Positions 13,393 to 13,623 of a stretch of DNA of 64,000 bases are shown in pieces; position 1 is the first letter of the stretch; every line of letters begins with the position of its first letter. Made by a program: the position numbers and the translations under genes. Below the pieces are notes generated by a model. It was not told the origin of the DNA. It did not search any database and saw nothing but the letters and a program-made list of their open reading frames with translations. The stretch is from a virus: positions 1 to 64,000 of the IMG/VR virus record IMGVR_UViG_3300042564_004498, one strand, 5' to 3'.

Positions 13393-13623
13393 TCTGTGAT
13401 AAGACCTTAAGATTTACTCATTCGTAGGTCACCCATTCTATTCTACCTAAAACTCGCCTTTAACATCCGTTCTACCCAAACCATCGTTTATTTCCTGTTA
13501 ACCTTTCAGTTATCTTTGAGTACCTCCTCAACCGGCAATCTGATAGGGGCTCCATATTGCTCGTCATTTCTGACTCCCTATGGGGTTCTGCTGTAATAGG
13601 TCTATCTGATATCTTATCACAGA
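13393..13623 (-). ncRNA. unidentified ~230-nt structured RNA
   Basis: Perfect 12-bp closing helix tctgtgataaga/tcttatcacaga; internal GAAA-tetraloop hairpins gtca-gaaa-tgac and taact-gaaa-ggtta on minus strand; no ORF. Confidence 0.65.

Follow-up and report, generated by a model that had tools for sequence, protein, structure and literature searches.

What kind of molecule, if any, is encoded where a cluster of tRNA-like genes ends on the minus strand of an uncultured jumbo phage? The window, by which we mean the whole stretch of 64,000 nucleotides that was analyzed, derives from a 145,525-nt virus record (G000) estimated to be 48% complete. A sequence-only reading had placed an RNA of about 230 nt at the end of this cluster, with boundaries that proved to be right, and had described it as a novel structured RNA or ribozyme. 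The interval almost certainly holds a real, stand-alone RNA gene, free-standing, conserved, and folded, and the longest same-strand open reading frame (ORF) inside it is 31 amino acids (aa).

13393-13623, minus strand: structured RNA gene, long form, 231 nt (RNA positions 1-231), scoring 270 bits with our covariance model R1

Homologs were collected by scanning viral and metagenome contigs with five seed patterns drawn from different parts of the RNA; a first scan with a 14-mer gave 1 true match among 118. The family comprises 75 loci and 37 distinct full-length sequences, of which 32 are a long form of about 230 nt (78 to 100% identical) and 5, from 12 loci, are a short form of about 116 nt. 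Covariance model searches found one copy per carrier genome, the short form being the sole copy present in the complete genome G004, and found none in the complete relatives G016 and G017. The RNA was not found in the GenBank phage collection or in the bacterial genomes of GTDB, where eight pattern matches were returned and none was confirmed by the covariance model. A relaxed pattern scan for the 3' core recovered no distant relatives and a single chance match. Records linked by capsid, mostly fragments, contained no further carrier and included two complete ones without the RNA, and an adjoining 78-aa ORF, tried as a route to homologs, led to loci that lack it.

The sequence-only reading had suggested an Rfam search and a covariation analysis of homologs as checks, and its claim of a novel structured RNA withstood both. 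None of the Rfam 15 covariance models matched the interval in the long form, even at E values of up to 10, and none matched the short form. The literature search found no published description of this RNA family. A set of candidate RNAs from IMG/VR contains 10,006 models of 29 to 151 nt each, so the 231-nt form cannot be among them whole; a fragment of it or the short form could be (PMC10690425).

The fold was modeled by combining RNAalifold with a helix scan, which gave a nested model with the following elements, all on the minus strand and, with one exception, numbered along the RNA.

13611-13623 (RNA positions 1-13), pairing with 13393-13405: 5' strand of P1, with 2 compensated pairs and 99% of cells paired
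5-13 with 219-227: P1 as drawn in the nested model
17-20 with 211-214: P2
23-31 with 171-179 and 33-34 with 167-168: P3, compensated
40-48: HA, a small hairpin, compensated
50-61: HB, a GNRA hairpin, 4 of 4 pairs compensated
63-66 with 159-162: P4, compensated
70-71 with 155-156: P5, compensated
74-77 with 147-150: P6, compensated
78-82 with 139-143: P7
93-108: HD, a distal hairpin
112-125: HC, a distal GNRA hairpin, compensated
190-197: Pc, the core GNRA hairpin
198-209: Pd, a small core hairpin that never varies

Across 32 sequences, 96% of cells are paired under this model and 15 of its 60 pairs are compensated (a count that leaves out Pd), exceeding all of 500 shuffles and all slid controls. 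A tree-aware count gave 22 compensatory events (HB alone accounts for 14), where the null had a mean of 0.4 and a maximum of 5. The RNA of the window also folds better than its shuffles as a single sequence (z of -2.4; 3 of 200). P2, P7, HD, and Pd are consistent with the model and lack a compensated pair because mean column identity is 90%. Among the unpaired columns, 64 of 103 are invariant over the 37 sequences and 55 of these 64 are A or G, an invariance that is inflated because the homologs were found with exact seeds. Three GNRA-type loops are conserved, and many unpaired As are invariant. A helix scan and pairing tests found no covarying loop-loop pairing or pseudoknot.

All the short words that the sequence-only reading had listed are present in the sequence, and several of its helices hold. 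The terminal helix, which it had given as 12 bp, consists of 12 Watson-Crick pairs and one U-G pair (RNA positions 1-13 with 219-231) and is confirmed by the homologs, as are the TGAG/CTCA and TAACT-GAAA-GGTTA hairpins, and the GTCA-GAAA-TGAC hairpin has all four of its pairs compensated. About half of its helices, together with its pseudoknot, are wrong. The proposed cctat/atagg helix has one pair broken in about half of the sequences, and gcaat/attgc has only 56% of cells paired; both perform like shuffles. The TAGGT word does pair, with an upstream ACCTA; its assigned pairing with the downstream accta is broken at one pair in 22 of 32 sequences and is likewise shuffle-like. The long-range pseudoknot between accc and gggt has no compensatory change and performs no differently from shuffles, and both words belong to compensated stems.

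Comparison of the two forms divides the RNA into a core and a removable arm.

13573-13623, minus strand (RNA positions 1-51): 5' half of the core, with P1, P2, P3, and HA, retained in the short form
13458-13572, minus strand (RNA positions 52-166): dispensable arm, with most of HB, an irregular rod P4-P7 (63-82 with 139-162), HD, and HC, deleted in the 5 short variants from 12 loci
13393-13457, minus strand (RNA positions 167-231): 3' half of the core, with the P3 3' strand, a purine-rich joiner, Pc, Pd, and the P2 and P1 3' strands

The short form thus consists of positions 1-51 joined to 167-231, without the 115-nt arm and with a remodeled HA cap, of which the loop is variable and the stem is kept; one example lies at 4842-4960 of L166. 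Alone, it folds into the same core (z of -3.7 and -3.1). In core sequence, every short form belongs with the window's clade, so the long form is probably ancestral. A 13-nt motif recurs in arm and core, each time on the 3' strand, with 9 to 13 of 13 positions matching; of six members tested, two have a significant repeat (p of <0.003 and 0.03) and the others have p values of 0.2 to 0.9, so an old duplication of one module is possible. The literature search found nothing on a repeated motif of this kind.

Simple motif patterns for known RNA classes were run on all 37 sequences, none of which has the motifs that define RNase P, SRP, group I and group II introns, hammerhead, tmRNA, T-box, or Y RNA. 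The earlier statement that the RNA matches neither tmRNA, RNase P, 6S, nor SRP is thereby borne out, as the RNA failed the tests that define tmRNA, RNase P, and SRP and does not fit the 6S layout. No tmRNA was called by ARAGORN at its default threshold (a low-threshold run gave noise), and a T arm was found in 0 of 37 sequences, as was the SRP54-binding loop of SRP helix 8. In place of the two-strand open bubble within a rod that marks 6S RNA, the model has multiway junctions, and its core junction leaves just 2 nt unpaired on the 5' side. Bacterial RNase P RNA (RF00010), minimal versions included, is similar in having a terminal closing helix, a link to tRNA, and a core with a removable domain, but the phage RNA lacks CR-I and CR-V (0 of 37) and the P4 pseudoknot; the P4-like pairing 102-107/204-209 has 4 of 6 pairs broken without compensation, in up to 17 of 32 sequences. 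A search of five complete genomes, four of them carriers, with RF00010 found no RNase P RNA and detected the positive controls. For a group I intron, the S motif is absent (0 of 37), the flanks differ between loci and are not exons, and a P7-like pairing (83-87/210-214) has a variable pair with 4 compensated and 7 broken cells and loses its 5' strand in the short form. Group II domain V and the hammerhead core were likewise found in 0 of 37, and no group II intron model in Rfam matched. A likeness to 23S domain V, noticed after the fact, gave p values of 0.05 to 0.7 in a chain test, and the 1 of 54 local alignments with p of <0.05 did not lie at domain V.

In the window, the RNA is preceded and followed by these elements.

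14747-14754, minus strand: TAnnTTTG element, the probable cassette promoter
14521-14609, minus strand: first YrlA-like permuted tRNA mimic of the cassette (Rfam YrlA, 24.7 bits, subthreshold)
14420-14512, minus strand: atypical tRNA-like gene with a hairpin in the D loop and an 8-nt anticodon loop
13721-14365, minus strand: SegB-like GIY-YIG homing endonuclease gene of 214 aa, 34% identical to T4 SegB over its length (E of 1e-32; PHROG homing endonuclease)
13631-13719, minus strand: second YrlA-like permuted tRNA mimic, its T arm preceding its D arm, immediately before the RNA in the cassette (Rfam YrlA, 25 bits against a 69-bit cutoff)
13196-13385, minus strand: separate downstream element, outside the RNA
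13142-13170, minus strand: intrinsic-terminator-like hairpin that ends the cassette

TAnnTTTG is the Bacteroidota-type promoter consensus. A promoter element lies within 120 nt upstream in 20 of the 37 variants (background, 7 to 9%) and a boxA within 30 nt in 20 of 37 (background, about 0.1%), with the RNA starting 6 to 23 nt past boxA in about half of the variants. A same-strand tRNA occurs within 1 kb in 31 variants and a U-tract at the 3' end of the RNA in 26. The flanks vary freely between loci, and the RNA may be first or last in its transcript; both observations speak against an intron or a cis element. For the window's lineage, the order of the shuffled cassette is promoter, YrlA-like mimic, atypical tRNA, optional further RNAs, and the RNA last, often followed by a separately promoted GOLLD; in G003 the RNA is about 46 kb away from the tRNA array. 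The RNA travels as a cassette, and no protein gene stays constant beside it. A SegB homolog has entered the window's cassette, and the gene is not beside most homologs of the RNA.

The YrlA-like mimics reach up to 41 bits in relatives, which is still below the cutoff. The RNA itself shares with YrlA-type Y RNAs (RF02553) ends paired in a terminal stem, and two of its neighbors are YrlA-like, but it has no T or D arm and lacks the 5' Ro60-binding motif described for Y RNAs (PMC4201824); no Ro60 (TROVE) gene was found in G000 or in the complete genome G001. Homologs of the atypical tRNA occur in L030, L140, L166, L172, and L225, where the 8-nt anticodon loop is nearly fixed and the acceptor stem is variable; with its D-loop hairpin, it is probably not a decoding tRNA. 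The downstream stretch of about 150 nt that had been described as ORF-free is indeed ORF poor, but it folds no better than shuffles (z of +1.2) and is a separate, swappable module, following the RNA in just L217 and L224 besides the window. It is weakly folded and is related to three tandem promoter-led units of about 250 to 300 nt (L124, 1885-2715).

Other elements were observed in these regions. A second RNA without a catalog entry, about 160 nt long and paired at its ends, lies directly upstream of the family member in L139, L169, L170, L179, L183, and L217 and is swapped in and out of the same cassette; an example is the last 170 nt of about L169:1-1000, where it has no Rfam match. A third, of about 150 nt, lies between the YrlA-like mimic and the atypical tRNA in L172 (about 1125-1250, minus strand), L140, and L192, and has paired ends and conserved blocks flanking a variable middle, with no Rfam match in L172. 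Just upstream of the RNA in G003 (L420, 17217-17298) is a tRNA-like gene that was missed by ARAGORN; it has an unusual D arm and, read by eye, its anticodon may be CUA (amber). Elsewhere in the window, 55811-58605 contains several intervals that are poor in ORFs and richer in G+C and that have G/C runs as well as inverted repeats; this may be an origin or packaging region.

The RNA is a new family of a kind already known, that of structured but unexplained RNAs from the tRNA regions of phages. Like other stable RNAs of phage tRNA arrays (T4 rnaC and rnaD, GOLLD, and ROOL), it is noncoding, has a conserved fold, and lies in or near phage tRNA transcription units; the new findings are a structure that has been put to the test, the existence of a short form, and the occurrence in two lineages. 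The T4 stable RNAs rnaC (species 1) and rnaD (species 2) have no known role (PMC3014915, PMC9697503). They too are small RNAs ending a phage tRNA cluster that contains a SegB gene, the T4 order (NC_000866) being tRNAs, segB, tRNA, rnaD, and rnaC. T4 rnaC ends in a T-arm-like hairpin, whereas the phage RNA lacks a T arm and has a long closing helix at its end; homology to either T4 RNA was rejected, as model R1 gives nothing meaningful at them. GOLLD (RF02032), ROOL, and manA (RF01745) are also ornate phage RNAs near tRNA genes with no known function. The RNA matched none of these families (the manA search had no positive control); it is shorter than GOLLD and ROOL, and a pseudoknot or kissing loop is not supported. 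A GOLLD RNA is present in G000 (locus L141) at 82306-82711 on the minus strand (323 bits), near two tRNA-Met genes and about 69 kb from the cassette.

Complete relatives of G000 are 296 to 373 kb in length and carry T4 Gp23-type capsid genes. The carriers G001 and G003, from two phage lineages, have 66 proteins in common and capsid proteins that are 26% identical. Their RNA tracts are 82% identical over 264 nt, the highest identity among common tracts of at least 250 nt; given the capsid divergence, the RNA has either moved between lineages or been strongly constrained. Close GenBank capsid matches include Flavobacterium phages for the window's lineage (41%) and Lak phages for the second (44%), which, together with the TAnnTTTG promoters, suggests that the hosts are probably Bacteroidota. 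In a comparison of five genomes, the three carriers have 19, 26, and 33 tRNAs and the two complete noncarriers 1 and 5. A screen for partner proteins in these five genomes returned 12 proteins common to the carriers and missing from the noncarriers; the 8 that were scanned matched no Pfam family, and none lies consistently beside the RNA.

We tentatively favor, at somewhat less than even confidence, the view that this is a stable RNA acting in trans as a decoy or scaffold for a conserved RNA-handling factor of the host, which is probably one of the Bacteroidota. Strong conservation across unrelated phages, along with the tRNA-mimic neighbors, fits this best. The tRNA mimics are thought to divert host proteins in the same manner. 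The RNA would be transcribed by host RNA polymerase from the TAnnTTTG promoter, with antitermination where a boxA is present, and would be trimmed by host nucleases out of a tRNA-type precursor, the closing helix shielding its ends. The invariant A/G-rich loops and GNRA hairpins may pack it into a compact shape in which the core could bind and divert a host protein of translation, RNA turnover, or RNA-cutting defense, and the arm may brace the fold or supply a second, similar site. As far as sequence conservation is concerned, a cage or a ribozyme fits equally well.

The RNA might instead form a protein-free homo-oligomer (a cage, ring, or filament) by analogy to GOLLD, ROOL, and manA, its GNRA loops and A-rich joiners docking on the helices of the next copy. 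GOLLD and ROOL, which share its setting near phage tRNA islands, form cages via A-minor contacts and kissing loops (PMC12286853), and RNAs under 200 nt can form protein-free assemblies (10.64898/2026.07.01.735769). The three conserved GNRA-type loops and the many invariant unpaired As suit such docking, and GOLLD directly follows the RNA in several relatives. We nevertheless consider an oligomer rather unlikely: no covarying loop-loop pairing or pseudoknot was found, the only copy in the complete genome G004 is a short form, which is half as long and retains one of the three GNRA loops, and the two RNAs are distributed independently, with the RNA lacking GOLLD in G003 and G005 and GOLLD lacking the RNA in G016 and G017.

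A regulator that binds the ribosome or a translation factor, for example through a Shine-Dalgarno-like word or rRNA mimicry, is quite unlikely. Such a word overlaps HD, the promoter and boxA are rRNA-style, and several short words are shared with 23S domain V, but the rRNA likeness is at chance level, and a stem hides half of the Shine-Dalgarno-like word, which differs in three sequences and does not occur in the short form.

We judge it improbable that the RNA is a new ribozyme for tRNA precursors or for its own transcript, in which the 116-nt core would be catalytic and the arm an accessory for specificity, in the manner of RNase P RNAs that have lost the specificity domain. The core with its optional domain, the purine-rich and invariant junctions, the richness of carriers in tRNAs (19, 26, and 33, compared with 1 and 5), and the lack of an RNase P RNA match in five complete genomes would accord with it. 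The ribozyme of the sequence-only reading nevertheless gained no positive support: the catalytic-core motifs of known ribozymes occur in none of the 37 sequences, up to 17 of 32 break the P4-like pairing proposed by analogy to RNase P, no pseudoknot is supported, the tRNA correlation comes from five genomes, and the host RNase P should suffice. It is similarly doubtful that the core is a new ribozyme class or a protein-free RNA machine for the jumbo-phage transcripts of tRNAs and tRNA mimics, and that the arm is its optional domain for specificity or assembly. A cis-acting element aiding antitermination or processing of the tRNA operon would account for the start 6 to 23 nt after boxA in about half of the variants but is very unlikely, given that the RNA closes the cassette of the window's lineage, has a 3' U-tract in 26 of 37 variants, and lies about 46 kb from the tRNA array in G003.

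The short form is a natural deletion mutant whose 116-nt core folds cleanly alone, and core and full-length RNA can therefore be compared directly. The family enlarges a small set of ornate phage RNAs whose roles have been open since T4 species 1 and 2, and a cage or a catalytic activity, if true, would be the larger result. The 82% identity of the RNA, compared with 26% for the capsid, suggests that its target is conserved, probably within a host group common to these phages. Identification of this target could reveal a factor of RNA handling or defense in the host that jumbo phages neutralize with RNA.
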